Numbered from the stretch's first letter, positions 6,975-31,109 are shown. The stretch: DNA of 64,000 bases from Elusimicrobiales bacterium (GCA_028713125.1 JAQTOU010000003.1:467286-531285), one strand, 5' to 3'. The notes: generated from the letters alone by a model not told the origin. Numbers and translations: made by a program.

Positions 6975-7012
6975 ATTCCGTATGAAAATAATTATTTTCA
7001 AATGAAAATATT
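6975..7012. promoter_or_regulatory. two-dyad upstream element, site A (putative enhancer-binding-protein UAS)
   Basis: Strong dyad TTTTCAAATGAAAA at 6995-7008. A weaker dyad (attccgTAtgaaaa) is centred 20 bp upstream. The strong dyad centre is 84.5 bp upstream of the GG of the 7085 promoter. Confidence 0.55.
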
Positions 7013-7084
7013 CTCCGCGTGCCTCCAGGGATAAAACAGAGATTTCTATATGAGAATTGCCTATTCCCTCCCTATTGCTGTCGT

Positions 7085-7100
7085 TGGCATAGAAAATGTT
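7085..7100 (+). promoter_or_regulatory. sigma-54-type -24/-12 promoter (degenerate -12: TGT)
   Basis: TGGCATAGAAAATGTT followed by ctgtag. GG-N10 spacing is exact but the -12 element is GT rather than GC. It lies about 50 nt upstream of the 7151 start. Confidence 0.55.
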
Positions 7101-7150
7101 CTGTAGAGAGTATCAGCGGGTAATATCTAAAATGGAAGGGTAAAGAACAT

Positions 7151-7855
7151 ATGAAAAAGAGCAAAATACTGATAGCGCTGTTCGCGGTAATAATAGCGGC
7201 AGCCTCAACTGTTAAAGCCGAAGGGATAAAACTGAAATTTGACGGCGAAGGCAACGACAAGAACGGGGCCTCATTGCGGGATGTAATTGAAGATGTTTCG
7301 GTAAATTCCGGGATTCAGATTCCTGAAATTCCAGCACGAAGGTTTGACGGCGACATGAGTAAGCCGGCTAAAGATTCAAACACCGAACTTTTGGGAATTA
7401 CCAGCCAGGGGAAAGGCGACAAAATATACTTGGAAGCCATCCAGGCGGTTTTAAAGCGAAGACTTCTTGATGCCTATAAAACTAACGCAGGTGTTTTGAG
7501 TGCGGTTAACGCGAACGGCACAAAGATCCTGTTCGACACGGAAGAGATCTGTATTACCTCCGCTGACTATAACGTTTATGTTGAGCTTAAAGATCCTGTT
7601 TTGCTGAAAGAATTCGCACTGCTGATACCTGCGAAAAACAAAGGAGTATGCACGACAATAATAACTGTCGGTAAAAAATGTAACACTTGGGCGCAACTTA
7701 TCTGCACGGCTTGGGAACTTTACAATATATACACCGAAATCTGCCCGCCGTCCGCCCCCTCGACCCCCCCTGCCGGTGGCGGCGGTGGTAACGGTGGGGC
7801 CGTCCTTCCTCCCCTTCCGCTCAACCCTCCGGTCAGGTCTGCCGGGGGATATTGA
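7151..7855 (+). CDS. secreted hypothetical protein with a Cys-containing segment and a Pro/Gly-rich tail
   Basis: 234 aa. Signal peptide MKKSKILIALFAVIIAAASTVKA. The C-terminus reads CTTIITVGKKCNTWAQLICTAWELYNIYTEICPPSAPSTPPAGGGGGNGG. I recognise no family. The region is low GC. Confidence 0.6.
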   Translation: MKKSKILIALFAVIIAAASTVKAEGIKLKFDGEGNDKNGASLRDVIEDVSVNSGIQIPEIPARRFDGDMSKPAKDSNTELLGITSQGKGDKIYLEAIQAVLKRRLLDAYKTNAGVLSAVNANGTKILFDTEEICITSADYNVYVELKDPVLLKEFALLIPAKNKGVCTTIITVGKKCNTWAQLICTAWELYNIYTEICPPSAPSTPPAGGGGGNGGAVLPPLPLNPPVRSAGGY

Positions 7856-7921
7856 AGTTTGCTAGTATTCCGTGAGCCGGTATCCAATGCAACGGCTCAC
7901 GAAAATAATTTATAAAGTTTT

Positions 7922-8662
7922 ATGAATAGTGACTTTACCGATCTAAAATCTGTTTCGATCATGAACTGGGTGAAACTGTTTTTACTCTCAGTCGTGGCTG
8001 TTCTGGCATTGGGCTTCTTTTTGCGGTTATTTGGCCTAAGGTTGCTCTCAAAGGAGATGTTCGGGATATTAATCTCGGCATCATTTATCGCGGTCTCAAT
8101 AAAGGCCTTACACGATTTAGGCATAGATCCTAGACAAGCCTTCTTTTACCACAATAAGCATGTGCATGCGAGTTTTGCATCTGGACTCAGGTATTTCCTT
8201 GTTCTTCCCTGTTTTATTGTCGCGGTAGTGGCGCTGGTGGGTTCCGCCGACTTTTTATTGTCTTATTTTAACCTGATGCCCGTGGAGACGCTGACTAATT
8301 ATTTAATCCCGGGTTCTCTCGCTCAGACAAGTTATATAGGTGCAGTTCTGCTTGGCTCCACACAACGGATACTTGTGTTCATTATTGCCACATGCGTGCT
8401 TGCCCCGATAGCAGAAGAACTTTTTTTTAGGCGCTTATTATATGTCAGTTTGCGCAATAAATACAATTTCCATCTATCGCTGACGGTATCTTCTTTTATC
8501 TTCGGGGTTTTTCACGGGGGAGGCTGGTTCATAGCATTCGGGAACGGGCTGCTATTGGGCTATCTTTACGAAAAAAAGCACGATATTCTGGCGGCCATGT
8601 TCCTGCATTCATTTATAAATGTGCTTGCGATAATATTAGGTTTCGCCGCACTATGGGCATAA
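7922..8662 (+). CDS. CPBP family intramembrane glutamic endopeptidase (CAAX protease/Abi-like)
   Basis: 246 aa, multi-TM. Motifs are EELFFRRLLY (EExxxR), FIFGVFHG (FxxxH) and HSFINV. The start codon is uncertain (ATG 7922 or the Met at MNWVKLF). Confidence 0.8.
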   Translation: MNSDFTDLKSVSIMNWVKLFLLSVVAVLALGFFLRLFGLRLLSKEMFGILISASFIAVSIKALHDLGIDPRQAFFYHNKHVHASFASGLRYFLVLPCFIVAVVALVGSADFLLSYFNLMPVETLTNYLIPGSLAQTSYIGAVLLGSTQRILVFIIATCVLAPIAEELFFRRLLYVSLRNKYNFHLSLTVSSFIFGVFHGGGWFIAFGNGLLLGYLYEKKHDILAAMFLHSFINVLAIILGFAALWA

Positions 8663-8892
8663 GCCAAGGTTCAGAAAATTTAACTGCGGTAATGTGTAAA
8701 TACTGCCAACATGCTAAAGCCAGGATTGTTAGGACAAAATTCTTTGGAACTTCACCCGGTTATACAAACAAAAAAACCAGATGATCTATAAACTCAAAGA
8801 CTTAGAAAGATTGAGCACTAAATTGATGGTACAAGTGTTAAACAAATAAAACAATAATAGCCCTTGCGAAGATAGGGGATAATCAATAAACC

Positions 8893-10404
8893 ATGAAACT
8901 GCTTGTAAAAATAATCAGGACTGCGGGTCTCATTCTGTTCCTCATCCTCCTTCTGCTGGCCGGAGGAGGGTTTTACCTGCACCGGTCAGGGGTCATGAAC
9001 CTCAACGGGCTTAATTCGAAGCTGGCCGCGGAACTTTTTATGTCGGAGTATAATCCGTTCAGAGTAAAAAATCTTACTCTTAAGGAAGCCGCGCAGGACA
9101 CCGAAGAACTTTTCGCGAGTTTCGAACGGGTGCATCCGGATATTTCCGCGAATATAGGGAAGGCGGAATACGAGAGACTGAAGATCTGGACCGCGGAAGA
9201 GGTCGCAAAAAAAGCCGCTGGCGGAAAGATCAGCGTCAGGGATTTCGCCTATATCCTCTATCGCTCCGCCGCGGCCCTGGGCGACGGGCACACCCGGATC
9301 TACTGGCAATACCGCCCTGACGGGAAAAAGGGGGAAAGGCTTTTTCCTCCTTTCCTCGTGGATTGCCGGGGCGGGAAGTTTTTGATCGACTCAGTCAACC
9401 AGGGTCTCGCCGGATATGAGATCATCGCTGTTAACGGCAAGGATTTCCGGGCCTTTATAAAGCCGATACTGGATCGCATCCCCGCAGAGACAGCCGCCTA
9501 CAAAGGCCGCGGTTTCGCGCGGATGCAGGCTTTCTGGTGGGATTTTTCCCGCCTGCTGGACGGAGCGGGCGAACTCAAGCTGACGCTGCGCGGAAGCGAC
9601 GGGAAGAAAACCGAGAAGACCGTCGCCCCCATAACCCTGAATCAATTCACAAGCCTGGGGAGGACGTCCTCGTCCGGCGCTAACGGCCCGAACTCCGAGC
9701 TCCGGCTGTTCGAAAAAGAAAAGGTCGCCTGGCTGGAGTACCGGAACTTTATAGATTCAAAGGAGGAAGAGGCCGCCCTGGACAAGATCTTCAGGGAAAT
9801 AAAAGCCGGCGGGTTCAGGGACCTGGTGATAGACATCCGCCGCAACGGGGGCGGCAGCACTAATATCGGCAATTTTATCTTCAGCTACCTGACGGATAAA
9901 GAGTTCCAACAGGTCTCCAAACTGGTTCTTAAGGTCTCGCCGGAGGCGCTGGACATGAATTCCTACTATAAAAAATACAGCGATAAGATGGGGCAGAACG
10001 TGGACCTTCCCCGCCATCCCCAAAAGGCCGAGAAAAAGCCGGAGGTTTTCTTCGACGGCAAGGCGCGCCTGCTCATCGGCAACGACACTTTCTCCTCGGC
10101 CACGGCTTTTGCCGTCACCTTCAGAGATTATAAGCTGGGCGAGATCCTGGGGAATGAAACTGGCGGCGTGCCGGTCTGCTTCGGCGAAGCCCTGCCGATG
10201 AAGCTGCGGAACAGCGGCATCAAGTACAGCGTTTCCGATAAGCAATTCTTCAGCCCGAAACCGCGTCCCGGCGATGACAGGCACGGGGTGCTTCCGGATG
10301 TGGAGTTCACGGACGAACTGCTGCGCCCTTACCGCGGCGACACGCGAAGGTTCGTGATGGACCGGATAGAGCGCGACAGGAAGGCCAAGGCGGGGACGCT
10401 TTGA
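8893..10404 (+). CDS. S41 family peptidase (tail-specific protease-like), membrane-anchored
   Basis: 503 aa with an N-terminal TM segment. DLVIDIRRNGGGS and LLIGNDTFSSATAFAV blocks resemble the S41 catalytic-Ser region. Confidence 0.6.
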   Translation: MKLLVKIIRTAGLILFLILLLLAGGGFYLHRSGVMNLNGLNSKLAAELFMSEYNPFRVKNLTLKEAAQDTEELFASFERVHPDISANIGKAEYERLKIWTAEEVAKKAAGGKISVRDFAYILYRSAAALGDGHTRIYWQYRPDGKKGERLFPPFLVDCRGGKFLIDSVNQGLAGYEIIAVNGKDFRAFIKPILDRIPAETAAYKGRGFARMQAFWWDFSRLLDGAGELKLTLRGSDGKKTEKTVAPITLNQFTSLGRTSSSGANGPNSELRLFEKEKVAWLEYRNFIDSKEEEAALDKIFREIKAGGFRDLVIDIRRNGGGSTNIGNFIFSYLTDKEFQQVSKLVLKVSPEALDMNSYYKKYSDKMGQNVDLPRHPQKAEKKPEVFFDGKARLLIGNDTFSSATAFAVTFRDYKLGEILGNETGGVPVCFGEALPMKLRNSGIKYSVSDKQFFSPKPRPGDDRHGVLPDVEFTDELLRPYRGDTRRFVMDRIERDRKAKAGTL

Positions 10405-10527
10405 TGATAGACTACTTGTACTCGATCGGCTATTGTTTCATTATTTCTATTTTCCTGACCACTTATCTGGCCTCCGTTATTGTAGATGAGGGGAACTGAA
10501 GCCGGCTTGATGCTGACGTCGCTATTT

Positions 10528-12450
10528 ATGAATACTTTGATAAAACTTGCGGGAGTTACGAAGAAATACAGGACCAGGGACGGCGAAGTGGCCGCCCTGG
10601 ACGGGGTTTCGCTGGAGATAGCGCAGGGCGAATTCGTTGCCATTACCGGGCCGTCCGGCAGCGGGAAATCCACGCTTTTAAATATGCTCGGCCTGCTCGA
10701 TAAGCCGGATTCCGGGGAATATTTCTGCGCCGGCCACAAAACTTCGGACCTGGACGATGCCGGACTTTCCGCGCTTCGCGGCAGGCTTATAGGCTTCGTC
10801 TTCCAGAATTTCCACGCGCTGCAGGAACTGACAGCCGAGGAGAACGTGGCGCTGCCGCTGTCCTACTCGGGGGTTTCCGGCGGGTATCAGCCGCAGGAGT
10901 GCCTTGAACTGGTGGAATTGGCCGACCGCCGCCATCACCGACCAGGCGAGCTGTCCGGAGGCCAGCAGCAGAGGATGGCCATAGCCCGCGCGATGGTGAA
11001 TAAGCCGCGCGTCATACTCGCCGATGAGCCGACCGGCAATCTGGACGGCGTACTGCGCGACGAAATACTTTCGCTTTTCGAGAAAATGAATAAGAGGGGC
11101 ATAACCGTGATCCTGATCACGCATGACCCGGTCGTCGCCGCGCGCGCGGACCGCGTGATAAATATTAAGGACGGGCGGATAAGCGCGGATAGCAGCAAAA
11201 AAGCGGGAGCGCCTGCCGCCGCAGAGCCGCTGCGGCTGCCCCGGCCGGTGAGAACCTTTACTCTTAAAGCTTTAAAACAGGAGGCGGCAGCGGCCGTCGG
11301 CTGCATGAGGCGCAATAAGCTGCGCAGCCTGCTGATCTTCGCCTGTTTTTCTATAGGGATAGGAGCCATTACGGCGGTCCTTGGCCTGACCGGCAGCTTC
11401 CGTAAAAAAGTTTTCGGCCGCGTCGACGCTATCGACCCGCTGTTGATAGAAGTTTTACCGGACAGTAAGACCGCCAGGCTTTCTTTTGAGGATGCTGCCC
11501 GTATTTCCGGGCAGGTTCATAATGTAGCAGGTGTCAGCGTCTCGGCGGCTTCCTGGGGCGTCGTGGCCGCAGGGGATAAGAAAACGGAGGCGGCTGTTTA
11601 TGAACTGAACGCCTACCGCCTGAAAGTCTATTATAACGGCGAGATCACCGGGCGGCTTTTCACCGAAGACGCCCCGGACCGGAACGCGGCTTTGCTTATG
11701 CGGAAAACCGCCCTGGAGCTATTCAGCTCGGAGAAAGCCGCGCTGGGCAAGAGCCTTAATATCGGCGGCAAGCAGTTCCTGGTTATAGGGGTTCTCGATA
11801 GCCTGGACTTTGAAGAGCTCAAAGGCGCTAACCCTGAGCGCGGCGTCGTGCTGCAGCTTAAAGCCGGCGAGAACTGCGGCCTGGCGGACCGGACGCCTAA
11901 ATTGCTGGAGGTGAAGATAGACAAGGCGGAAAATGTGGCCGCCGCCGCAGGCGAGCTCTCCAGGCTCTTCAACGGGCCCCCCGTGCCCGGCCGCGCGGTG
12001 AAAAAAACGTTCAAGGTGCACTCCGCTAAAACCTTTTTAGACGCTATACGGCGCACGAACTACTTCTTTAAGATATTTTTTCTCGCTGTAACCGCCATTC
12101 CGATACTGCTGGGCGGGCTGGCGGTGGCCAATACTATGCTGCTCAGCGTGGGCGAGCGGCGCGCCGAGATAGGCCTGCGCAAAGCGCTGGGCGCCCGCCG
12201 TAAAGATATTATGCTGCAGTTCCTGATGGAATCCTTTATCCTCTACGCGGCCGGCGGTTTGATAGGCGCGGCGGCAGGAGTGGCCGCGGTATATAAACTG
12301 GCCTCGCTTATGAAGATAGAGCCGGCGTTCAACCCCGCCTCTGTCGTCTACAGCTTCGTCCTGATGGGCCTCAGCGGCCTTCTCTTCGGCCTCTGGCCCG
12401 CCCTGAAAGCCGCCGCCGTAAACCCGATCCAGTCCCTGAGGGGGAATTAA
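10528..12450 (+). CDS. MacB-type fused ABC transporter (ATPase plus FtsX-like permease)
   Basis: Walker A GPSGSGKST, signature LSGGQQQRMAIARA, Walker B ILADEPTGNLD. A large extracytoplasmic segment and C-terminal FtsX-type TM helices follow. I prefer ATG 10528 (MNTLIKLAGV) over the upstream in-frame track start at 10486. Confidence 0.85.
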   Translation: MNTLIKLAGVTKKYRTRDGEVAALDGVSLEIAQGEFVAITGPSGSGKSTLLNMLGLLDKPDSGEYFCAGHKTSDLDDAGLSALRGRLIGFVFQNFHALQELTAEENVALPLSYSGVSGGYQPQECLELVELADRRHHRPGELSGGQQQRMAIARAMVNKPRVILADEPTGNLDGVLRDEILSLFEKMNKRGITVILITHDPVVAARADRVINIKDGRISADSSKKAGAPAAAEPLRLPRPVRTFTLKALKQEAAAAVGCMRRNKLRSLLIFACFSIGIGAITAVLGLTGSFRKKVFGRVDAIDPLLIEVLPDSKTARLSFEDAARISGQVHNVAGVSVSAASWGVVAAGDKKTEAAVYELNAYRLKVYYNGEITGRLFTEDAPDRNAALLMRKTALELFSSEKAALGKSLNIGGKQFLVIGVLDSLDFEELKGANPERGVVLQLKAGENCGLADRTPKLLEVKIDKAENVAAAAGELSRLFNGPPVPGRAVKKTFKVHSAKTFLDAIRRTNYFFKIFFLAVTAIPILLGGLAVANTMLLSVGERRAEIGLRKALGARRKDIMLQFLMESFILYAAGGLIGAAAGVAAVYKLASLMKIEPAFNPASVVYSFVLMGLSGLLFGLWPALKAAAVNPIQSLRGN

Positions 12451-15238: not shown

Positions 15239-15387
15239 CAGATATGAGGCCGGGCCTATGCCGGCATAGGTCCAAGGACCCTTCCACGCCCAAAACCTAT
15301 CAGCTAGACTATTGTTGTAGTGATTCCTTGTAATTTGGGGGATTGGCCCCAGAGTATCCACGATCCGACCTTAATCGGATGTATCCA

Positions 15388-15422
15388 GGGAAAGCAAAAA
15401 GACACTTTGCTTTCCCTTTTTT
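15388..15422 (+). terminator. strong intrinsic terminator about 150 nt downstream of pmbA
   Basis: gggaaagcaaa (15388-15398) / tttgctttccc (15406-15416), followed by tttttt. Confidence 0.7.
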
Positions 15423-15753: not shown

Positions 15754-16629
15754 ATGGCGAATAAAAAATTTAAATTGTGTATCCTTCCAGGATATCGATG
15801 CAATTTCGCTTGTGCCCATTGTTCTGCCACACTAAAAACACCTCAAAGATTGGCAGATTCCGAGATCCAATCCATCTTGGCTGCGATAAAGGCCTACAGT
15901 GTAACATCCCTGCACTTTGTTGGCGGCGAACCTACCTTGTATATAGCGGACATTAACCGGATTCTCTCCGGGCTTGCTAGCCTGAAGCACACTAAAGTTA
16001 GAATTACTACTAATGGGCACTTCGGAGCGACAAAAAAATCTGCAAAAGCTGTTTTGGCCTCACTATTAAAATTAGACTATCTGCAGCTGTCTTATGACAA
16101 ATTCCATCGGGAGTTCCTTCCATTCAAAAACATACGTACACTTTACAATGTATGTTTGGAGGCGGGGGTGGAATTCAGCGTTGCAATAAGCATTCAGTCC
16201 CCTCTGGATCTGGTTCTGGCTCCGCAGTTAAAGAAAATAGGTGATTTTCCTATCGGCGTTTTAAAGGTTATGCCAGCGGGATCAGCTAGGGAAAATAATC
16301 TGGCTTATCGTTATCCAAGCTTTGACAAGAGGGTGCTGTCTAAAAAATGTCCAAATCATAAAACAATTACATATATGTGTGGTGAGGGGTTCACAAGTTG
16401 TTGTTCGTTGCTAAGTTTCGGCGAGGGCTCCGCGCGTTTTGCCCATCCGACCATGAGAGCCCACCTGAATAGTGATTTCTATAAACTAATTTCAAGACAT
16501 TCTTTCGGGGAGATAATGCGAATGTCGGGGGTGGCATCAACCCCGTTAAGTCCCGATCATTCTTCTCCATGCACTTTATGCGCGCATCTGTTCAAACTCG
16601 GGCCTGTCCGGAATATCGCAGGTATATGA
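15754..16629 (+). CDS. radical SAM protein with an extra C-terminal Cys cluster
   Basis: 291 aa. CxxxCxxC is in GYRCNFACAHCSA. SLHFVGGEPTL is the SAM-binding GGE block. C-terminal cysteines are KKCPNHKTITYMCGEGFTSCC and PCTLCAHLF. Confidence 0.75.
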   Translation: MANKKFKLCILPGYRCNFACAHCSATLKTPQRLADSEIQSILAAIKAYSVTSLHFVGGEPTLYIADINRILSGLASLKHTKVRITTNGHFGATKKSAKAVLASLLKLDYLQLSYDKFHREFLPFKNIRTLYNVCLEAGVEFSVAISIQSPLDLVLAPQLKKIGDFPIGVLKVMPAGSARENNLAYRYPSFDKRVLSKKCPNHKTITYMCGEGFTSCCSLLSFGEGSARFAHPTMRAHLNSDFYKLISRHSFGEIMRMSGVASTPLSPDHSSPCTLCAHLFKLGPVRNIAGI

Positions 16630-18032
16630 TGGGTGGCCGATACTTAAAGGTCTTGCTGCTTTTCTTTGCATGCAACTCGTCTATTGGATGTAACACTCCA
16701 CGCAATACTGATACCTGGGAGGTGCTGCTTGGCGCTATCCCCAAAAGTATTTCCATAAAAGACGCCGAGCAAACTATCACTTACTATATTCTCAGGCAAA
16801 CCCATGAACCCCTGTTCAGGCAGGATGACGGGTCTAGTTATAAATCCAAATTGCTGACAAGCTGGTCAAGGAACATATCCTCTTCGGAGTATATGTTCTG
16901 TCCCGACACTTCGCGCATGTTTGATAAAGATGTAGGGTTTACTGCTGATTTCTTCTATGAGTACCTGCGAAATGTGGCCGGTAAATATGATCCCAACTAT
17001 AAGCTATTAAAACAAGGCGAGTGTGTAGCGGTAAAATTCACTAAACCGCAGTCGCATTTTCTGGCTTTTCTTTCCCGCTATGAAAACGCCCCGACTATTA
17101 TTAAATCCTCGGAGGTGGAGAGCGGTTTGGGGCCCTTTTATGTCCAGAGTCTTTCGCAAAGTGAGGCAGTTCTTGTGCGGAAAAAGCGGGTAGCCAATGG
17201 CTATAATAAAATAATCGTTCATGCCTATACCGGTCCCGGAGACCCTAATCTCGAAAACAGAAATATCGCGGACTTTAACAGGATATCTTCATACTCCCAG
17301 CCAGAATGGATTAAAAACGAATACTTGGGATTCAATAATCTGGAGTTGAAATCTGTGAACGTAATAATTAACCACCCGGACAGAGAAATACGGAGTATGC
17401 TCTATAATTGCATTGATGTCGGGGAATTCCGGGAAGCTTTCTCTCCGCAGCGCAAAGAATTTCATGATATTCAGACGCTTTTGCCTATTGGTTTTTTCGG
17501 CTCAAAGCCGGGGAAAGCTTTCCAGCAATGCCAGTTCCCAAAGGGACCATCCCGTAAAACTGCTCCTTCATTTGTGCTGCTAAACCAGCAGAAGGATAAT
17601 AGTCAGCAACTTCAGATCTTCATTAAAGGGTTTTATAAAAAAACAGGTATAAAAATATTGACTATACAGCCTCCGGGGCAGGAAGTAGTAGAAATGCTGC
17701 ATCGCCGTCCTCATGGATATAACCTTGCTGTCGTTGTAATGGGTACGCAGAACTGGGATTACGGGACGGTATTTAAATATTATGCAGGCAACTCAGCGTA
17801 TTATGATAAGGTCCCTAAAGAAGCGGAGAATATTTATAAAAAGTTGGTTGAGGCACCCGAGGACGAAAAGCCGGCGTTCGCAGTTCAATTAGCCGACGAA
17901 TTGGTTAAGCAATCAATAGTCCTGACGCTTTATCAAACATCTGTGAAGCTTTATTACCCCAAGTTCATAAAAAACTTTGTGATAGGCCGGGGTTTTCTTG
18001 AAACTCCTGAGGTCGGTGACTTCCGATGGTAA
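16626..18032 (+). CDS. family-5 (peptide/nickel-type) extracytoplasmic substrate-binding protein, lipoprotein-like
   Basis: I prefer the start at ATG 16626 (ATGA overlap with the radical SAM stop). MMGGRYLKVLLLFFACNSSIGC is a lipobox-like signal. THEPLFRQDDGSSYKSKLLTSWS...FTADFF resembles the SBP_bac_5 N-terminal block. Confidence 0.6.
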   Translation: MMGGRYLKVLLLFFACNSSIGCNTPRNTDTWEVLLGAIPKSISIKDAEQTITYYILRQTHEPLFRQDDGSSYKSKLLTSWSRNISSSEYMFCPDTSRMFDKDVGFTADFFYEYLRNVAGKYDPNYKLLKQGECVAVKFTKPQSHFLAFLSRYENAPTIIKSSEVESGLGPFYVQSLSQSEAVLVRKKRVANGYNKIIVHAYTGPGDPNLENRNIADFNRISSYSQPEWIKNEYLGFNNLELKSVNVIINHPDREIRSMLYNCIDVGEFREAFSPQRKEFHDIQTLLPIGFFGSKPGKAFQQCQFPKGPSRKTAPSFVLLNQQKDNSQQLQIFIKGFYKKTGIKILTIQPPGQEVVEMLHRRPHGYNLAVVVMGTQNWDYGTVFKYYAGNSAYYDKVPKEAENIYKKLVEAPEDEKPAFAVQLADELVKQSIVLTLYQTSVKLYYPKFIKNFVIGRGFLETPEVGDFRW

Positions 18033-19705
18033 AAATTTTAAGCAGAGCGCTTTCGTATAACTGGAAATATTATGCCGCGGCGGTAGCGGTGTTCGTGGCT
18101 TTCTGGCAGATGTTCTCAATCTTCTCTTCCACGCGGGTGGCTGATGATAAGTTGTTGACGGCCATGCGTCAGAATGCGGATTATTTTGAGAAGGCTTTTC
18201 TTGAGGGGGATGTTTTTGAAACGCAGCGCATAATGTGGCGCATCAAGAATGACAATATAAAGCGGATAACTTTTCATCCTGTTGCGTTCGAGGGGTCGAA
18301 GTGGATATTTAAAGAGGCTATAGTCGGGAATCTCTACGACCGGCCGCGGGCGCAGCTTAACCGCAATGTGCCTTTCATTTCAAACGGCGCGGAATTAGGC
18401 CGGCTGGAATACGTTATCGATCTTGTGGATGTGAACTCGGCTGTTTTTGGGGAGAACTATGTCTTGTTCATAACCGTGGTGTTCTTTTTCATGGGACTGC
18501 TTGTGCTTTCAAATGTCGGGGCGATAAAAACTATTTTCAGCATAGAGCGCTGCGTGGATGAGACCAATGCGCTGGCGACCGCGGGCGAACATTCTAAAAT
18601 ACAGGATTCCATACAGCGCAGCATCCAGTCCCTGCCGGAAAGCCTGCGCGCTACTCCTTTTGCCGTGCTTATAGGCCGCCTTGCCGATGTGCTTCATAAG
18701 GCTTCACGCCTGGAGAGCGAGCTGGCTGTTTCAAAGGCCACTTCCGACCTGGCCGCGCAGGTGGCGCATGATATCAGGTCGCCGCTGGCCGCTCTGGGCG
18801 CCGCCGCCAAAGGCCTGGAGATGCCTGAGGACCAGCGCAAGCTGGTGGAAGGCGCCGTGGGCCGTATGCAGGGAATTGCGGATGACCTGCTGCAGCGTTA
18901 CCGCGCGCCTTCAGCAACGCATGCCGAGCCCAAACCGGCGGTTTGTGCGCTTGGCGGGCTTATAGAGCAGGTGCTTTCTGAAAAACGACTTCAGCATAAA
19001 GATAAGACCGGGGTTAAGATAGAGTTCAATGGCGCCTCCGGAGAGATCAAAGCCCTGGTCGAACCGAAAGAACTTCAGCGGCTGCTGTCCAACCTTGTTA
19101 ATAATTCCGTAGAAGCTTTTGACAAGAACGGCACAGTTGCAGTTTCCCTGTCGGGAGTAGACGGCAAAGTTTTGATAGAAGTGAAGGACAACGGCAAAGG
19201 CATCCCGGCGGATATCCTTTCGAAGCTCGGCCAGAAGGGGGAGACGCACGGAAAAACCGGCGGTAACGGACTCGGCCTTTACCATGCGCGCACTACAGTA
19301 GAGGCCTGGGGCGGCTCCTTCAAAATTAAATCAGAGCCGGGCAAAGGCACAGCCGTGCTGATAGAGCTTCCGCGTCCCGCCGCTCCGGTCGGACGTATGG
19401 TAGTCCTCCTGGACGATGATATGCTTGTGCATATGAACTGGAAACTGGCCGCGAAAGCCGCCGGGGTGGAACTGAAGGCTTATAAGACCAAAGAAGATTT
19501 TGCGGCAGGTATTGAAAGCCTGTCTAAAGACGTCCCTATCTATATAGATTCCGATTTGGGTAATAACGTTAAAGGCGAGGACATAGCCAAAGAGCTGAAT
19601 AATAAAGGCTTTACCAATCTCACCATGGCCACCGGCCACGGCGCGGATAAATTCTCCCACCTCCCTTGGCTCAAAGTAACCGGGAAAGAACCGCCTTGGG
19701 GCTAG
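18026..19705 (+). CDS. hybrid sensor histidine kinase (2-TM periplasmic sensor, HisKA, HATPase_c, C-terminal receiver)
   Basis: 559 aa. Overlaps the SBP gene by 7 nt. H-box AQVAHDIRSPLAAL, N-box LLSNLVNNSVEAF, G-boxes VKDNGKGIP and GGNGLGLY. The receiver shows VVLLDDD...IYIDSDLG...MATGH...GKEPP. Confidence 0.85.
   Translation: MVKILSRALSYNWKYYAAAVAVFVAFWQMFSIFSSTRVADDKLLTAMRQNADYFEKAFLEGDVFETQRIMWRIKNDNIKRITFHPVAFEGSKWIFKEAIVGNLYDRPRAQLNRNVPFISNGAELGRLEYVIDLVDVNSAVFGENYVLFITVVFFFMGLLVLSNVGAIKTIFSIERCVDETNALATAGEHSKIQDSIQRSIQSLPESLRATPFAVLIGRLADVLHKASRLESELAVSKATSDLAAQVAHDIRSPLAALGAAAKGLEMPEDQRKLVEGAVGRMQGIADDLLQRYRAPSATHAEPKPAVCALGGLIEQVLSEKRLQHKDKTGVKIEFNGASGEIKALVEPKELQRLLSNLVNNSVEAFDKNGTVAVSLSGVDGKVLIEVKDNGKGIPADILSKLGQKGETHGKTGGNGLGLYHARTTVEAWGGSFKIKSEPGKGTAVLIELPRPAAPVGRMVVLLDDDMLVHMNWKLAAKAAGVELKAYKTKEDFAAGIESLSKDVPIYIDSDLGNNVKGEDIAKELNNKGFTNLTMATGHGADKFSHLPWLKVTGKEPPWG
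18755..19705 (+). repeat. transmitter-receiver module, copy 1 (paralogous to 23653-24600)
   Basis: Nucleotide alignment by eye with 23653-24600 shows long identical runs, e.g. gtggcgcatgatatcaggtcgccgct and ggagatgcctgaggaccagcgcaa. Most codons are conserved. The 5' sensor parts are unrelated. Confidence 0.8.
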
Positions 19706-19726: not shown

Positions 19727-19756
19727 ACGGGCCCAGATGGGCCCGTTTTCTTTTCA
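19727..19756 (+). terminator. intrinsic terminator of the kinase operon
   Basis: acgggccc-agat-gggcccgt followed by tttcttttc. The U-tract runs into the first half-site of UAS site B. Confidence 0.75.
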
Positions 19757-19784
19757 AATGAAAATAAATATTTTCATTTGAGCA
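19751..19784. promoter_or_regulatory. two-dyad upstream element, site B
   Basis: TTTTCAAATGAAAA (19751-19764) and TTTTCATTTGAGCA (19771-19784), centres 20 bp apart. The order of the AA-centred and TT-centred dyads is swapped relative to sites C and D. The nearest sigma-54 promoters are about 570-600 bp away at 20329-20375. Confidence 0.5.
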
Positions 19785-19885: not shown

Positions 19886-20278
19886 TTAATTCTCCCCTGA
19901 GCCGCCGCAGGCGTTGCAGGGGAAGTAGGCGTCGATACTCCCGCTTCCGCCGCAAAAATTGCACTCGTTGCTGCCGGCGCCGCCGCAGGAGCCGCAGGTC
20001 TGGTTCCCGCTGCCGCCGCAGAGATTGCAGGTCTGGGCCTCGCCGTAAACGGTCACGCTGCCTCCGCCTCCGCATTGGCCGCAGGTGTACTCGCCGTTGC
20101 CGCGGCAGTTCGAGCAGCGCTGCTGGCCGCCGCTGCAGGCGCCGCATTCATGCGACAGGTGGGTTTGCCCTGTTCCCCGGCAGGTTCTACACTCGCCCCT
20201 GGAAAGCGCTTCACTCTGAGCCACCCCGCTGATATTTATTGCGAACACTATAGCGATAATCAATTTTATCTTTTTCAT
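19886..20278 (-). CDS. secreted protein made of eight DnaJ-type CxxCxGxG zinc-finger motifs
   Basis: 130 aa with an AAGGAG RBS. Signal MKKIKLIIAIVFAINISGVAQ. The eight motifs are CRTCRGTG, CGACSGGQ, CSNCRGNG, CGQCGGGG, CNLCGGSG, CGSCGGAG, CNFCGGSG and CNACGGSG. Confidence 0.75.
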   Translation of the reverse strand: MKKIKLIIAIVFAINISGVAQSEALSRGECRTCRGTGQTHLSHECGACSGGQQRCSNCRGNGEYTCGQCGGGGSVTVYGEAQTCNLCGGSGNQTCGSCGGAGSNECNFCGGSGSIDAYFPCNACGGSGEN

Positions 20279-22003: not shown

Positions 22004-22035
22004 AAAAAGCGGGCAATAGGCCCGCTTTTTCTTTT
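22004..22035 (+). terminator. intrinsic terminator
   Basis: agcgggc-aatag-gcccgct followed by ttttctttt. The U-tract runs into UAS site C. Confidence 0.7.
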
Positions 22036-22065
22036 CATTTGATAAGAACTATTTTCAAACGAAAA
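22032..22065. promoter_or_regulatory. two-dyad upstream element, site C
   Basis: TTTTCATTTGATAA (22032-22045) and TTTTCAAACGAAAA (22052-22065), centres 20 bp apart. The proximal centre is 84.5 bp upstream of the GG at 22143. Confidence 0.55.
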
Positions 22066-24669: not shown

Positions 24670-24702
24670 GTTTCATTTGAGAATATTATTTTCAAATGAA
24701 AA
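24670..24702. promoter_or_regulatory. two-dyad upstream element, site D
   Basis: GTTTCATTTGAGAA (24670-24683) and TTTTCAAATGAAAA (24689-24702), centres 19 bp apart. The proximal centre is 95.5 bp upstream of the GG at 24791. Confidence 0.55.
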
Positions 24703-24852: not shown

Positions 24853-24984
24853 ATGGAAAATCTTAGGAATGTGATCGCGAAAGCCGGCATCGTACTGCCC
24901 GAAGTGACCCTAGCGCAGGAAGCCGATAAGAACTTATGCGGTCAGACCTGCATCGGCTGCACCACCGGTTTGCTCGGGGGCTGA
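24853..24984 (+). CDS. RiPP precursor peptide A (43 aa, Cys-rich core)
   Basis: MENLRNVIAKAGIVLPEVTLAQEADKNLCGQTCIGCTTGLLGG. AAGGGG RBS 9 nt upstream. The sigma-54 promoter lies inside the longer track ORF (24766), so the start must be the downstream ATG. Confidence 0.8.
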   Translation: MENLRNVIAKAGIVLPEVTLAQEADKNLCGQTCIGCTTGLLGG

Positions 24985-25032: not shown

Positions 25033-25104
25033 TCCGGTTCATTTTTTGACGGTGCACAGACGTTCGCCGGGAGCGGGCTCAGCAGTTTATCGCCTTCAGA
25101 GTAT

Positions 25105-25120
25105 TGGCATAAAAAATGCT
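25105..25120 (+). promoter_or_regulatory. sigma-54-type -24/-12 promoter of precursor B
   Basis: TGGCATAAAAAATGCT followed by tcgtag. GG-N10-GC spacing is exact. Confidence 0.8.
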
Positions 25121-25167
25121 TCGTAGTGGGCGTAGGCAAACAAAACAGATATAAGGGGATAAATACA

Positions 25168-25296
25168 ATGGAAAATCTTAAGAATGTGATCGCGAAAGCC
25201 GGCATCGTACTACCCGAAGTGAACCTCGCTCAGGATGACAAATCGGTATGCGATGTGACCTGCGTCGGCTGCACCACTGGGCTGCTCGGGGCCTAA
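25168..25296 (+). CDS. RiPP precursor peptide B (42 aa, Cys-rich core)
   Basis: MENLKNVIAKAGIVLPEVNLAQDDKSVCDVTCVGCTTGLLGA. It has the same RBS and leader as precursor A. The core keeps C-x3-C-x2-C-TTGLLG. Confidence 0.8.
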   Translation: MENLKNVIAKAGIVLPEVNLAQDDKSVCDVTCVGCTTGLLGA

Positions 25297-25320
25297 GACA
25301 GATCAGCACTATATGGCGGG

Positions 25321-25344
25321 CACGCAGTGGCTTACCGCTGCGTG
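25321..25344 (+). promoter_or_regulatory. conserved post-precursor hairpin B
   Basis: cacgcagtgg / ccgctgcgtg at the same relative position as hairpin A, with base changes that keep the pairing. A second hairpin follows (cctgtgc...gcacagg, about 25345-25385). Confidence 0.5.
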
Positions 25345-27805: not shown

Positions 27806-28535
27806 AACACAATACACGAAAGTGTTCTGGCTGATAGCGAACTTCTGCCCGCCGCTGTTCTATCTGTTCTTTTTCGCCCTGATCTTTTCCAGTTCGATGA
27901 AACCTATGATGCCGGGCGGACCCCAGACCAGCTACCTGACGTTCTTCCTGCCCGGGCTCATCATCATGCAGTCTTTCAGCGTCTTCCAGACGACTTTCTC
28001 GCTGGTACACCTCGACAAAAGACTGAAGATCCTGGAAACCATACGGACCACCAGGACTACCGTGGTCGAGTATTTCTTCGCCAAATCCATAGGCGCGCAG
28101 GTGCTGGCTTTCGCCAGGGCCCTGCTGGTGTATTTGATCGGCGTAGTGTTCTTTCATATAACTTTGAGCGCCTCGAGCTTTCTTGCCCTTTCGCTGACGC
28201 TGCTGCTGTCCAATGCGATCTGGTTCAATCTCGGTTTCGTGCTTGGGTTCATGATAGAAACTGAGGAAAAAAGGGATATCTTCCAGCAGCTGTTCACCCT
28301 GCCCGTGACTTTTCTTTCCACTATTTATTATTCCGCCAGTAATGTGCCCGGCGGGCTCGCCGCCTTCGTAAGGCTCAATCCCCTGACCGCGGCCAGCAAT
28401 CTTTCGAGAGGCGCGCTGCTGGACCCCGGGTTCTCAGGCCGCGCGGACGCCTATTTCCTGTCCGTTTACCTGGCGCTCAGCCTCTGCGGCGCCTGGGCTT
28501 TTTTCCGCTTCACGCGCAAAGAGTCTTTTTCATAA
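27777..28535 (+). CDS. ABC-2 type transporter permease
   Basis: 252 aa with about 6 TM helices. It overlaps the ATPase gene by 29 nt. The exact start is uncertain. Confidence 0.75.
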   Translation: MLAILWRDLKTQYTKVFWLIANFCPPLFYLFFFALIFSSSMKPMMPGGPQTSYLTFFLPGLIIMQSFSVFQTTFSLVHLDKRLKILETIRTTRTTVVEYFFAKSIGAQVLAFARALLVYLIGVVFFHITLSASSFLALSLTLLLSNAIWFNLGFVLGFMIETEEKRDIFQQLFTLPVTFLSTIYYSASNVPGGLAAFVRLNPLTAASNLSRGALLDPGFSGRADAYFLSVYLALSLCGAWAFFRFTRKESFS

Positions 28536-28616: not shown

Positions 28617-28650
28617 AAAGCCGGCTTTAAAGGCCGGCTTTTTCTTTTCC
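28617..28650 (+). terminator. intrinsic terminator of the RiPP operon
   Basis: aaagccggc-tttaaag-gccggcttt followed by ttcttttc. The U-tract runs into UAS site E. Confidence 0.75.
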
Positions 28651-28678
28651 TAATGAAATAAATATTTTCATATGAAAA
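28645..28678. promoter_or_regulatory. two-dyad upstream element, site E
   Basis: TTTTCCTAATGAAAT (28645-28659) and TTTTCATATGAAAA (28665-28678). The proximal centre is 71.5 bp upstream of the GG at 28743. Confidence 0.5.
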
Positions 28679-28837: not shown

Positions 28838-29437
28838 ATGAAGAAAGAACTTAAAGCGGTGTGCGGGATGGTCCTGGCGGCAGCGGCGGTACTCTGCGCG
28901 GGCAGGGCCGGCGCGCAGACCAGCATAAACATGGAGCCGGCAGGGTATATCATGAAGCCGGCGGCCTGGGGCCAGGTTTCCCGGCCTTCCTCTTCCGACA
29001 GGCTTTCAGAGGCCGCGGAAAGCCTTGCCGAGGCGGCTAAATCAGGGGACAATGCAAAAACTGAAGCTTTGCTTGCGAATCTTTACTCAGGAGCTGCCGG
29101 GAAAGAAGCCGCTGCCCCTGTATATGCCGGGAACAGGCAAACTGCATCCGCGCCTGTAGCCGCCGCGCCGGCTCCCGCCGCTCCCGCACAGATGAAGCTG
29201 GCGCCCGACCGCGCTTCGGCAGTGGAGGAACTGGAAGAGTCGGCCGATGAGTCCGTCTCGGAGGATGAGGACGCTGATGTAAAAGCCGACGATGCTGAAG
29301 ATGAAGCTCCCGCGGAGGTTGCTGCTGATGACGTGGGGGATGCGGCTGCTGAGGAGAAGCCTAAGCAGAGCTTCTGGGACACCCTGCTCGGCGGCGGCCT
29401 TGGTATGCTTCTGGTGATCCTGCTTCTCTTGCTGTGA
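28838..29437 (+). CDS. secreted acidic Ala-rich protein with a C-terminal hydrophobic anchor
   Basis: 199 aa. Signal MKKELKAVCGMVLAAAAVLCAGRAGAQ. It has a low-complexity A/E/D-rich middle and ends ...FWDTLLGGGLGMLLVILLLLL. Confidence 0.6.
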   Translation: MKKELKAVCGMVLAAAAVLCAGRAGAQTSINMEPAGYIMKPAAWGQVSRPSSSDRLSEAAESLAEAAKSGDNAKTEALLANLYSGAAGKEAAAPVYAGNRQTASAPVAAAPAPAAPAQMKLAPDRASAVEELEESADESVSEDEDADVKADDAEDEAPAEVAADDVGDAAAEEKPKQSFWDTLLGGGLGMLLVILLLLL

Positions 29438-29443
29438 AAGAGG

Positions 29444-29626
29444 TCAGGCTTTATCTATCTGGGCGAGTATCTTGATTATTTCCGCGGCGGCGGCGTTCAT
29501 CAGGGCCAGCATCTCTTTCTTCTCGACCGCCGAGCAATCCTTGTAAAGTTCCGCGGCGCTTTTGAGGCTGGAGCACTTGGACCGCAAGTCGTGCAGAAGC
29601 TTGCTGCTGTCTGGCGTAGTGGTCAT
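29444..29626 (-). CDS. 60-aa helical protein with an Hpt-like His motif (candidate phosphotransfer protein)
   Basis: ATGA start/stop overlap with the upstream enhancer-binding protein gene (29626-29623). MTTTPDSSKLLHDLRSKCSSLKSAAELYKD... resembles the Hpt motif H-x-L-K/R-G/S-S-x-x-x-L/G. Confidence 0.45.
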   Translation of the reverse strand: MTTTPDSSKLLHDLRSKCSSLKSAAELYKDCSAVEKKEMLALMNAAAAEIIKILAQIDKA

Positions 29627-30972
29627 TTCTTTTCTCCCTCCGGTTCTATCCCCAGCTTCTTCAGGGTCGAATATAAAAGCCTTGTCGAAATTTTAAGGTC
29701 GGCCATTGTTTTGGTCTTCTTGCCCTCGTTCTCACGCAGGTTCCTCGTGATTATTTCGCCGGAAACTTTATCCAGCGCGGCCTCGAGGCCGTTCGCCATA
29801 GCGTAGGCGTAAAGCCCGCCGTCACCGGCGGAGGCGGGCTGCGCCGCTTCCCGCCCTTTAAGATGCTTCGCGACGGTGTTTATATCCACCCGGCCTTCCG
29901 AGCCGCTCGAGACCAGGTCCACGAACTTCTTGAGCTCGCGCACATTTCCGGTCCAGGAGTAAGTCTCCATATAAGCCCTCGCTTCCGGGGTGAAAGACAG
30001 TCTCCGGCGGCCGCTGGTGAAGTGCTGCACCAGGGGGGCTATGTCGCAGGCCCGGCGCGAGAGCGGCTTGAGGTTTATAGTGTAGCCGTGCACGCGCTGG
30101 AAAAGGTCGAAGCGCATTTTGCCCTGGGCGATCAGCGTCTGCGGGTCTTCAAGCGTCGCGCTTATGATGCGGAACTCGGAATGCTCCGGCTTTTCAGAGC
30201 CGAGCGGGTAGAAAGAGCGCTCCTCTATGGCCTTCAGCAGCTTCATCTGCATTCCAAGGCTCATCGTGCCTATCTCGTCGAGGAAAAGAGTTCCCTTATG
30301 CGCTTCCAGGAGACGGCCTTTGCGGGTTTCGTGGGCCCCGGTGAAAGCGCCTTTTTTATGGCCGAACATTTCGGCCTCGAGCAGGTCCTCGGTATAAGCC
30401 GAGCAGTTTATCGAGACGAAAGCGCCTTCGCGGCCTGAATGTTCGTGGAGTATCTTGGCCAGCGAGGTTTTCCCGGTGCCCGACGGCCCGAGTATAAGGA
30501 TCGGCAGCTCGGTTGGCGCGTATTTCAGGGCTTCGGAAGCGGCGGCTTTGGTTTCCGGGTCGCAGGTGATGAAGGCCGAGGAAAAAATATCTTTTGCGCC
30601 GGCGGCTTTCCTGTTCTGTATGAACTTGCGCAGGATGTCGGCCACATTCGATTCTTCGTTTCCTTTCGCGTAAAAATCATTTGCGCCAAGCGCGTAGGCC
30701 CGGTCGATAGTCTCGTCCGAGTCGGAGCTGGATACCACGACGCAAAAAACGCCTCTCGCCGCCGCGGCGGCTATCGCTTTAAGGCCGGAGTAATCGTCGT
30801 CCGGGCCGAGCATCAGGTCGAAGAAGCCGATATCGTATTTCACGCTTTCGATCTTCTTGAGCGCCGTTTTCAGGTCCCCGGCCAGGTCGATATTATGTCC
30901 CGCCAGATGCGCGGACATGACCTTCTGCGCCAGTTTATCGTCTTCCAGAACCAGTATATTGAGTTTTTCCAT
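29623..30972 (-). CDS. sigma-54-dependent response regulator (NtrC-family bacterial enhancer-binding protein)
   Basis: 449 aa. Receiver domain (ILVLEDD...FFDLML...). AAA+ domain with Walker A GPSGTGKTS, the GAFTGA loop (HKKGAFTGAHE) and LFLDEIG. C-terminal Fis-type HTH (KTKTMADLKISTRLLYSTLKKLGI). Confidence 0.9.
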   Translation of the reverse strand: MEKLNILVLEDDKLAQKVMSAHLAGHNIDLAGDLKTALKKIESVKYDIGFFDLMLGPDDDYSGLKAIAAAAARGVFCVVVSSSDSDETIDRAYALGANDFYAKGNEESNVADILRKFIQNRKAAGAKDIFSSAFITCDPETKAAASEALKYAPTELPILILGPSGTGKTSLAKILHEHSGREGAFVSINCSAYTEDLLEAEMFGHKKGAFTGAHETRKGRLLEAHKGTLFLDEIGTMSLGMQMKLLKAIEERSFYPLGSEKPEHSEFRIISATLEDPQTLIAQGKMRFDLFQRVHGYTINLKPLSRRACDIAPLVQHFTSGRRRLSFTPEARAYMETYSWTGNVRELKKFVDLVSSGSEGRVDINTVAKHLKGREAAQPASAGDGGLYAYAMANGLEAALDKVSGEIITRNLRENEGKKTKTMADLKISTRLLYSTLKKLGIEPEGEKK

Positions 30973-30976
30973 AATG

Positions 30977-31010
30977 TTCTCGCCTGAGAAGAAATGTTTT
31001 CAAATGAAAA
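30977..31010. promoter_or_regulatory. two-dyad upstream element, site F (in the divergent region between the regulator and the sigma paralog)
   Basis: TTCTCgccTGAGAA (30977-30990) and TTTTCAAATGAAAA (30997-31010), centres 20 bp apart. The element starts 5 bp upstream of the regulator start codon (30972). The proximal centre is 91.5 bp upstream of the GG at 31095. Confidence 0.55.
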
Positions 31011-31093
31011 TATATGCCCCGAACTTATTATACAGAAATTGGGCGTGAGCCGCATCTCGAATGGGAACTCCGGTGAGCGGCGCTTGCGTCCAA

Positions 31094-31109
31094 TGGCATA
31101 AAAAATGTT
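31094..31109 (+). promoter_or_regulatory. sigma-54-type -24/-12 promoter (degenerate -12: TGT)
   Basis: TGGCATAAAAAATGTT followed by ctatta. GG-N10 spacing is exact but -12 is GT, not GC. It lies about 45 nt upstream of 31154. Confidence 0.5.

Follow-up and report, generated by a model that had tools for sequence, protein, structure and literature searches.

In the enteric NtrB/NtrC system, a kinase-phosphorylated activator with receiver, AAA+, and helix-turn-helix (HTH) domains acts through tandem dyads some 100 bp before the GG-N10-GC promoter glnAp2 and also controls its own gene from these sites. We examined a 64-kb window (the whole stretch of 64,000 nucleotides analyzed here, from the Elusimicrobiales bacterium assembly GCA_028713125.1, JAQTOU010000003.1:467286-531285) that carries, at 7-31 kb, eight promoters of the -24/-12 type, six tandem-dyad elements, and the gene of an NtrC-type activator next to that of a sigma-54-like protein of 351 amino acids (aa). 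By analogy, the circuit logic is of the NtrB/NtrC-sigma-54 type, with an autoregulation of the activator gene that is inferred here; the dyad sequence is a different one, the predicted targets are non-nitrogen genes, and the sigma gene would be both a part of the module and one of its targets. Overall, the sequence comparisons indicate that this region probably forms the center of a sigma-54-type transcription system that is specific to the Elusimicrobiota lineage and largely self-contained, wired as proposed below. The proposed system would differ from the known systems compared here in (i) its compact, phylum-restricted sigma factor; (ii) the physical pairing of this factor with one activator; (iii) the autoregulation of the factor; (iv) a cargo of modified peptides and secreted proteins; and (v) a riboswitch gate.

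The closest specific precedent is that of the four sigma-54 copies RpoN1-4 of Cereibacter (Rhodobacter) sphaeroides, each with its own activator (NifA, FleQ/FleT, AprX). According to Poggio et al. (2002 and 2006), the RpoN copies are reportedly not interchangeable, with promoter sequence contributing to specificity. Each of these specialized copies serves one activator and one gene set (PMC11999139). The C. sphaeroides copies are full-length paralogues, whereas the 351-aa form is restricted to Elusimicrobiota and adjoins its activator in most genomes. In the Vibrio LuxP/LuxQ-LuxU-LuxO pathway, which the sensor arrangement here recalls, a periplasmic binding protein and a hybrid kinase control a sigma-54-dependent regulator, and the output depends on a secreted signal, the counterpart of which is speculative here; differences are the probable family-5 type of the binding protein, the lack of an identified Hpt protein, and a predicted direct transcription of many structural genes rather than of small RNAs. 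The nisin (NisK/NisR) and subtilin (SpaK/SpaR) systems are similar in combining a two-component system with precursor, maturase, and exporter genes and in placing identical promoters before the operons, but their regulators are of the OmpR type and work with sigma-70, in contrast to the enhancer-dependent sigma-54-type control and radical-SAM maturases predicted here. PrsK/PrsR (TIGR02915) of the PEP-CTERM/exosortase system, the second-best NCBIfam match of the activator, is comparable as a dedicated sigma-54 response regulator with many paralogous secreted proteins; when the target proteins were inspected, a PEP-CTERM motif was not apparent in them, and no exosortase was detected among the Pfam-scanned open reading frames (ORFs) of the region.

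Promoters and tandem dyads

The pattern YGGCATA-N5-TGYT was found at seven sites of the window as an exact match (P1, P2, and P4 to P8; Table 1), compared with 0.12 expected and a maximum of 1 in dinucleotide-preserving shuffles. An earlier note on this DNA had fitted eight sites to the pattern; the eighth (P3) was found to have T instead of A at the seventh base and thus fits YGGCAT-N6-TGYT, while the GG-N10-G(C/T) spacing described for the set was exact in all eight. With a weight matrix derived from the eight promoters, their own scores were 30.7-39.7 bits, and no further site on the two strands of the 64 kb exceeded 8 bits, so that all promoter sites of the window, eight in number, are concentrated at 7-31 kb. 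At each site an ATG was located 56-96 nt 3' of the motif start and was preceded by a purine-rich Shine-Dalgarno-like stretch (GGAGG, AGGAG, AAGG, and similar), consistent with the position shortly upstream of start codons with ribosome-binding sites first assigned to these promoters. The features of sigma-54 promoters were found to be present, namely TGGCAY-N5-TTGCW, GG and GC 10 nt apart, and a location 30-100 nt before a gene. The consensus of the eight sites was TGGCATAAAAATTGCTCTGTA, and that of 217 distinct sites was TGGCATAAAAATTGCTCTGTAnnGG. Across the 217 sites, the spacer and about 10 nt beyond the -12 element carried high information content, and there was none upstream of -24. The spacer AAAAAT and the 10 nt after the -12 element (CTGTAnnGG, positions +17 to +26) were conserved like the core, which is unusual for sigma-54 promoters. 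A scan for sigma-70 promoters was uninformative (23 sites versus 16.2 expected).

The dyad TTTTCANNTGAAAA was detected with at most one mismatch at seven sites (6995, 19751, 22032, 22052, 24689, 28665, and 30997), compared with 0.03 expected from shuffles. These sites belong to six elements (U1 to U6), and in each of the six a partner dyad was found with its start 19-20 bp away, in agreement with the two-dyad layout of about two helical turns that had been read from the sequence. The partner dyads were weak (2-3 mismatches) in five of the six elements; judged singly, dyads with three mismatches occurred at about chance level and those with two were enriched about ten-fold (12 versus 1.2), and the weak partners, of little weight by themselves, were kept at the same position in orthologous regions of relatives. 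At P1, P4, P5, P7, and P8 the center of the strong dyad was located 72-96 bp upstream of the GG, so the enhancer-type distance claimed for five elements held. Enhancers usually have two or more dyad-symmetric sites about 70-150 bp upstream of a promoter, and by this layout these five elements would be putative enhancers. The element described as lying directly upstream of the activator gene is U6, 5 nt from the start codon. Element U2 is about 575-610 bp away from the back-to-back promoters P2 and P3; P6 lacks an element, and the closest one is about 410 bp off. Intrinsic terminators were found to end most units, often running straight into the next dyad element. Between U2 and P3 (19785-20360), P2 and an inverted Cys/Gly-rich gene are placed as if inserted between enhancer and promoter; in relatives, the corresponding position has the kinase gene, a terminator, tandem dyads, and then a promoter about 95 bp on.

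The module was seen again in about 150 related genome fragments. In 1.21 Mb of genome loci, the strict promoter pattern was matched 75 times versus 2.8 expected, with 73 of the matches on the strand of the sigma gene. Of 112 looser promoter matches, 53 had a dyad (at most one mismatch) within 400 bp upstream, and in 52 of these 53 the nearest dyad was at 56-101 bp. An exact-match scan of metagenomes with a 21-nt promoter consensus gave 97 stretches, and 80 of these were retrieved; a dyad was present 68-113 bp upstream of 51 of the 83 promoter copies that had sufficient sequence on that side, against a background of 0.21 dyads per kb. In dozens of species, the stretch between the activator and sigma genes has kept the weaker dyad TTCTC-N4-GAGAA 19-20 bp upstream of the strong one. 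The genes found behind the promoter in relatives included the sigma gene (36 cases), the family of the P7 product (12), and the family of the P1 product (9), as well as many unrelated short Cys-rich peptides and radical-SAM enzymes. The regulon extends beyond this one cluster: in relatives, promoter/dyad units also occur on long fragments without the sigma and activator genes.

The activator and the compact sigma-54-like factor

One enhancer-binding protein and one sigma-54-like protein, and no more of either, were found in the 64-kb window, which bears out the statement that the protein encoded at 29623-30972 is the only enhancer-binding protein present. Its AAA+ domain (PF00158, E 2.9e-55) has the segments GPSGTGKT, LFLDEIG, and KGAFTGA, and its receiver (PF00072, 39 bits versus a cut-off of 30.2) has the acidic pocket EDD, the Asp of FDLML, and the conserved Lys; the protein aligns to Aquifex NtrC1 across 360 residues. 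When compared with the NCBIfam orthologue models, the protein reached 249 bits of a cut-off of 650 for RtcR, 228 of 503 for PrsR (TIGR02915), 207 of 559 for NtrC (TIGR01818), and 172 of 800 for LuxO (NF041946). Being far below every orthologue cut-off (ZraR was also tested), it is of the NtrC class but is not NtrC, LuxO, AtoC, or PrsR. The last 45 residues (EIITRNLRENEGKKTKTMADLKISTRLLYSTLKKLGIE) resemble a Fis-type HTH in appearance, and a profile of 29 orthologue C-termini gave weak matches to the HTH region of sigma-54 regulators (E 0.0017-0.04; 7vbs 0.0017, 3rqi 0.011), with an HTH_8 match in one of the 29. Across the phylum, few parts of the activator are conserved as well as this C-terminal segment, in which DLKISTRLLY is strongly kept. 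On the activator strand, ATTATACAGAA (31027..31037) reads as TATAAT and is conserved at about 35 loci between the strong dyad and the P8-type promoter, its conservation being limited to activator/sigma intergenic regions. It is a candidate sigma-70-type -10 element of the activator gene, the transcript of which would then cross the dyads, and it could equally be used as a weak plus-strand -10 element.

The 351-aa protein matched PF04552 (62.7 bits versus a cut-off of 22.8) and has the RpoN box SRRSVAQYR (ARRTVAKYR in the sigma-54 family), with sequence similarity to sigma-54, including chains in the PDB, limited to the C-terminal 140 residues (211-351). An AF2 model built from 58 family members (mean pLDDT 74.4) was used for fold comparison, and the top 26 PDB chains were all sigma-54 (280-448 aligned columns, TM about 0.35), with the next match at E 0.35. 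A helix at residues 11-31 has, as judged by eye, a pattern like that of region I. The model suggests a complete but very compact and divergent sigma-54, about 25% shorter than that of E. coli. A family search of 5.8 billion proteins returned 284 clusters of 340-370 aa, in which all named members are Elusimicrobia metagenome-assembled genomes, and a scan of one genome per species gave 79 sigma-family loci, almost all labelled Elusimicrobiota or Elusimicrobiales. A tblastn search of the window plus 1.8 Mb from related loci with E. coli RpoN (an approximate query) matched the compact factor alone, in its DNA-binding domain. In the same 1.8 Mb, all 69 activator-type AAA+ matches were at least 50% identical to the window activator, and thus a single activator family was seen. 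The cultured Elusimicrobium minutum is reported to lack sigma-54 and its activators (Francke et al. 2011, PMC3162934); beyond this absence, our literature search found no paper linking Elusimicrobia and sigma-54. Several assemblies have two copies of the sigma gene (L026/L058, L028/L037, L030/L035, L034/L044, L050/L054, and L067/L070, where L numbers denote related loci), as does one 45-kb contig (L099/L101), and the copies at L034, L035, L037, and L041 have neither an upstream promoter nor an adjoining activator.

Further analysis of the relatives revealed that sigma gene and activator gene are inherited together. At 59 of these 79 loci the sigma gene has an activator orthologue (51-99% identity) next to it, divergent in the close clade and, in the distant clade, directly upstream and on the same strand; the complete genome with L072 (CP096137.1) has the distant form of the module only. 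About 40 of the loci have TGGCA(T/C)-N6-TG(C/T)T 47-190 nt ahead of the sigma gene, even at 62-70% protein identity to the window factor, and in about 40 species promoter and dyad are kept as a pair of unchanged order, the strong dyad being mostly 56-101 bp upstream. The proteins were also found to vary along with the DNA sites. Loci in which the activator helix reads K-I-S-T-R have tandem TTYTCA-N2-TGARAA dyads; those with I-A-T-R or I-A-N-R (L060 and L080) have tandem TTGCG-N2-CGCAA dyads, again spaced by 20 bp and right before the activator gene, and the clade with I-D-T-G has neither dyad type. The RpoN box LSRRS is accompanied by TGGCAT or CGGCAT at -24, while in the clade with LS(L/S/A)RS the orthologous promoter of a 672-aa radical-SAM-like gene has CAGCAT or CTGCAT and then ATTGATC. 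Both co-variations are in the direction predicted by the model and may tie the proteins to the DNA sites; since each rests on one or two clades, they are suggestive and not statistical. Because of the phylum-wide linkage to the activator and the co-variation of the RpoN box with the -24 element, the 351-aa factor is likely the dedicated sigma of these promoters and not merely a target.

Riboswitch, putative sensory operon, and predicted target genes

A feature that the earlier note had missed is a 2'-dG-II purine riboswitch within the P1 operon, probably reached by read-through from P1. The 3' strand of the aptamer helix P1 also starts the 5' arm of the strong terminator that follows, so that ligand should prevent termination; the element is therefore predicted to be an ON switch. 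In 23 related loci scanned, 20 further instances were identified at 72-85 bits, and 19 of these precede the same peptide/radical-SAM/binding-protein/kinase operon, while that of L076 is directly upstream of the activator-sigma operon. The layout with the overlapping terminator was present in 18 of 18 instances examined, with compensatory changes in L076, and in four relatives (L039, L040, L110, and L131) the riboswitch directly follows a -24/-12 promoter. A decayed promoter of this type before the window riboswitch was considered and rejected: ATTGTTGTAGTG near 15312 is -12-like, but there is no GG element. As of 2017, the 2'-dG-II class had 12 members, all from metagenomic reads without lineage assignment (PMC5473149). 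Here, the riboswitch leads into an operon for a kinase or the activator and not into a gene of nucleotide metabolism. Between the riboswitch terminator and the following 65-aa ORF (15423-15484), a short palindromic stretch, ATCGGCAAATTGCATAAAAG (AAGCAGGTTGCATAAAAATCG in the window), is conserved and is also present in relatives.

The 65-aa ORF, the 291-aa radical-SAM enzyme, the 487-aa lipoprotein, and the histidine kinase HK559 form a set that recurs in many relatives: a small ORF orthologous to the first was present in six of six relatives examined (L143, L131, L110, L135, L015, and L009), and the other three are kept in 11, 9, and 24 genome loci, respectively. The window lipoprotein alone had no family match; in its family, 6 of 21 orthologues matched PF00496 (best E 2.3e-7), and a profile matched nickel/peptide-binding proteins of the PDB at E 3.3e-7. 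HK559 and the second kinase of the cluster, HK576, both have HisKA and HATPase_c domains. They share near-identical transmitter halves and, in the genes, a 300-nt stretch of 87% identity (18753-19052 versus 23652-23951), and differ in their N-terminal, presumably periplasmic sensor halves, which suggests duplication or gene conversion that keeps both matched to one partner. Their last 100 residues are receiver-like, with DDD, DSD, T, and K motifs by eye, and match the receiver model weakly (14.5 and 18.7 bits versus a cut-off of 30.2). A third histidine kinase of 863 aa (38820-41411, minus strand) is located outside the cluster and has no promoter or dyad motif nearby.

The genes behind the promoters are listed in Table 1. 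Of the target classes named earlier, signal-peptide proteins and a putative modified-peptide operon were found; the label "hybrid kinase" corresponds to a sub-threshold receiver, and the "sigma-54 paralog" is probably a dedicated factor. No Pfam or NCBIfam family was found for the 234-, 221-, 199-, and 199-aa proteins or for either precursor. The peptide unit has the gene content of a modified-peptide cluster of the radical-SAM/SPASM (sacti-/ranthipeptide-like) kind, with short Cys-rich precursors, a radical-SAM/SPASM enzyme, and an exporter, with the maturase far below the cut-off of every NCBIfam maturase model (best 101 bits versus 395). The precursor unit of promoter, leader, and gene is tandemly duplicated (24788-25032 versus 25103-25344, 81-91% identity); the second copy has no dyad element, and the hairpin terminator after precursor A is strong. 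Divergent from P1 is a pair of M16 (insulinase-type) peptidase genes (3941-6897, minus strand), which adjoins the activator gene in 11 genome loci and could encode a leader peptidase for the peptide cargo. Outside 7-31 kb, the window has housekeeping genes, such as those of a class-I tRNA synthetase and release factor 3.

Table 1. Coordinates of features in the window and in related loci (L numbers)
Feature	Position	Strand	Details
Promoter P1	7085..7100	+	TGGCATAGAAAATGTT; 34.5 bits
Promoter P2	20329..20344	-	TGGCATAACAATTGCT; 31.7 bits
Promoter P3	20360..20375	+	TGGCATTAAAATTGCT; 35.9 bits
Promoter P4	22142..22157	+	CGGCATAAAAAATGCT; 30.7 bits
Promoter P5	24790..24805	+	TGGCATAAATATTGCT; 38.1 bits
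Promoter P6	25105..25120	+	TGGCATAAAAAATGCT; 39.7 bits; duplicate of P5 unit
Promoter P7	28742..28757	+	TGGCATATAAATTGCT; 37.1 bits
Promoter P8	31094..31109	+	TGGCATAAAAAATGTT; precedes sigma-54-like gene
Dyad element U1	6975..7008		weak 6975-6988 and strong 6995-7008 (TTTTCAAATGAAAA); strong center 85 bp upstream of P1 GG
Dyad element U2	19751..19784		strong 19751-19764 and partner 19771-19784; after kinase terminator
Dyad element U3	22032..22065		two dyads, 1 mismatch each
Dyad element U4	24670..24702		tandem dyads upstream of P5
Dyad element U5	28646..28678		tandem dyads upstream of P7
Dyad element U6	30977..31010		activator/sigma intergenic; weak dyad starts 5 nt from activator start codon
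Enhancer-binding protein	29623..30972	-	receiver, AAA+ with GAFTGA, C-terminal HTH-like segment; divergent from P8
Sigma-54-like factor, 351 aa	31154..32209	+	behind P8
134-aa lipoprotein, weak Ig-like match	32242..32646	+	followed by terminator 32665-32694
2'-dG-II purine riboswitch aptamer	15323..15393	+	RF03165, 85.6 bits versus gathering 60; model positions 1-71
Intrinsic terminator	15388..15422	+	5' arm overlaps 3' strand of aptamer helix P1 (GGGAAA)
65-aa protein, N-terminal signal-like segment	15485..15682	+	candidate signalling-peptide precursor
291-aa radical-SAM enzyme	15754..16629	+	Pfam scan
487-aa lipoprotein, probable divergent family-5 solute-binding	16569..18032	+	overlaps HK559 start codon
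Histidine kinase HK559, receiver-like C-terminus	18026..19705	+	Response_reg E 0.04, sub-threshold
Histidine kinase HK576	22886-24616	+	Response_reg E 0.002, sub-threshold; behind P4
234-aa signal-peptide protein, no Pfam/NCBIfam family	7151..7855	+	P1; 9-member family behind promoters in relatives
CPBP/Rce1-like intramembrane protease	7922..8662	+	P1; PF02517 E 6.9e-19
S41 family peptidase	8893..10404	+	P1; PF03572 E 5.6e-17
MacB-type fused ABC ATPase/permease	10486..12450	+	P1
TldD/PmbA-type metallopeptidase pair	12562-13941, 13925-15238	+	P1; PF19289 E 3e-44, 6e-45
130-aa secreted Cys/Gly-rich protein	19886..20278	-	P2; CxxCxGxG-like repeats
221-aa signal-peptide protein	20416-21081	+	P3
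FGE-sulfatase-domain protein	21141-21956	+	P3
199-aa signal-peptide protein	22207-22806	+	P4, before HK576
43-aa Cys-rich precursor peptide A	24853..24984	+	P5; terminator 25005-25036
42-aa Cys-rich precursor peptide B	25168..25296	+	P6
Radical-SAM/SPASM maturase	25446-26861	+	peptide unit P5/P6
ABC ATPase	26861-27805	+	peptide unit P5/P6
ABC-2 permease	27777-28535	+	peptide unit P5/P6
199-aa signal-peptide protein, C-terminal hydrophobic anchor	28838..29437	+	P7; 12-member family behind promoters in relatives
Riboswitches in relatives	L009, L015, L033, L038, L039, L040, L043, L076, L097, L110, L115, L119, L120, L131, L133, L135, L141, L152, L159, L160		
TTGCG-N2-CGCAA tandem dyads	L060 3665-3696; L080 1529-1560		
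Altered -24/-12 (CAGCAT-N5-ATTGATC)	L066, L069, L071-L074		near 8030-8370

Proposed circuit, alternatives, and meaning

The central proposal of the earlier note, that the sigma-54-type promoters would be driven by the neighboring NtrC-type activator through the tandem dyads, found agreement in all in silico tests. In the circuit that we propose, the kinases would phosphorylate the receiver domain of the activator, and the activator would bind two dyads two helical turns apart, oligomerize, and with ATP open RNA polymerase carrying the compact sigma at the -24/-12 sites. Positive feedback would be expected from the placement of the sigma gene and the two kinase genes after promoters of this kind, and, because the activator transcript must cross the activator's own binding sites, the activator may be subject to negative autoregulation. 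The 2'-dG-II ON switch would additionally gate the peptide/radical-SAM/binding-protein/kinase operon, and from its layout a guanine nucleoside would license this signaling arm, in which HK559 would be translationally coupled to the probable family-5 solute-binding lipoprotein. It is speculative that the 65-aa peptide and the radical-SAM enzyme make an exported signal that is sensed by the binding protein and the kinase in a quorum-sensing-like loop. A farther-reaching version, which we regard as rather doubtful, is that the Elusimicrobiota have in the minimal 351-aa sigma-54 and its single activator an orthogonal set that is the sole sigma-54 machinery of the cell and the output of a riboswitch-licensed peptide signaling loop deploying a changeable arsenal of secreted proteins and modified peptides.

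Several observations weigh against the proposed circuit. On the DNA side, (i) dyads are absent within 400 bp of P2/P3 and P6, and in relatives roughly half of the promoters lack one with at most one mismatch; and (ii) the helical phasing of dyads and promoters is weak (Rayleigh R 0.23-0.25 at a period of 10-10.5 bp, p about 0.03-0.04, where the p values are uncorrected and the sites not independent). On the protein side, (iii) the C-terminus of the window activator gave no direct HTH match (Pfam to E 10, including HTH_8; phmmer versus the PDB), such that the label "Fis-type HTH" given earlier agrees weakly with the orthologue profile and not with the window protein alone; (iv) an Hpt protein that could serve a hybrid-kinase relay was not identified; and (v) the N-terminal 210 residues of the compact factor had no PF00309 or PF04963 match (Pfam, E<0.01), and AF2 confidence is mixed there, with pLDDT below 50 at residues 1-20, 69-83, and 146-162. 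Furthermore, each co-variation comes from one or two clades and few independent events, and TGGCAY-N5-TTGCW could also be read by a standard sigma-54, which may be encoded outside the window, as may other activators.

The last of these points leads to the alternative that an ordinary full-length RpoN from elsewhere in the genome reads the promoters and that the 351-aa protein is a target, modulator, or decoy. The position of TGGCAT-N5-TTGCT inside the canonical sigma-54 consensus speaks for this explanation, as does a compact protein without sequence-detectable region I and core-binding domains. We nonetheless consider it unlikely, given that the genes of the sigma-like protein and the activator are linked in 59 of 79 loci and form one operon in the distant clade, that the RpoN box is changed where the -24 GG has lost its first G, and that the predicted fold aligns along its length to sigma-54 only. 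Neither a canonical rpoN nor a second activator family was found in the 1.8 Mb of related DNA, and E. minutum is reported to have neither sigma-54 nor its activators (PMC3162934). The dyads, in turn, might be operators of another protein, such as a repressor or nucleoid protein, with the activator working from solution or from other sites. Some activators, such as FlgR and CtcC, work without DNA binding, and the weakly detectable HTH of the activator and the several promoters without a nearby dyad would fit such an arrangement. Against it, the position at 56-101 bp, the tandem two-turn layout, and the placement in the activator leader are typical of enhancers, the dyad sequence changes with the C-terminal helix of the activator, and this C-terminal segment is among the best conserved across the phylum, which together make a different binder very unlikely.

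It is also conceivable that the terminator-dyad-promoter units are copies of a DNA cassette, repeated or mobile, that plays no part in regulation, in line with a 52-nt direct-repeat family that covers terminator tail and dyads in three units and with the recent duplication of the peptide A and B units. This idea was rejected, and we find it hardly credible, because the flanks beyond the motifs lack conservation (information about 0 upstream of -24) and the matches show an extreme strand bias (73 to 2); motif orientation and distance to start codons are fixed, and the motifs are at orthologous positions in species with proteins only 60-80% identical.

Taken as a dedicated sigma factor, the compact protein would represent a form of sigma-54 that has not been described before, is restricted to one phylum, and is inherited with one activator. 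Because it is compact and co-inherited, and because its promoter and enhancer consensus can be read from genomes, it may provide a natural minimal, potentially orthogonal sigma-54/activator/promoter set, of use for examining the ways in which region I and the core-binding domain can be reduced, and perhaps also for synthetic circuits. The 2'-dG-II class gains a host phylum, the Elusimicrobiota, and a gene context in which a nucleoside-sensing RNA appears to be tied to two-component sigma-54 signaling. For this uncultivated phylum, the system would offer a regulatory handle on its repertoire of modified peptides and secreted proteins, as searches with the promoter/dyad pair may find cargo genes that are missed by homology.

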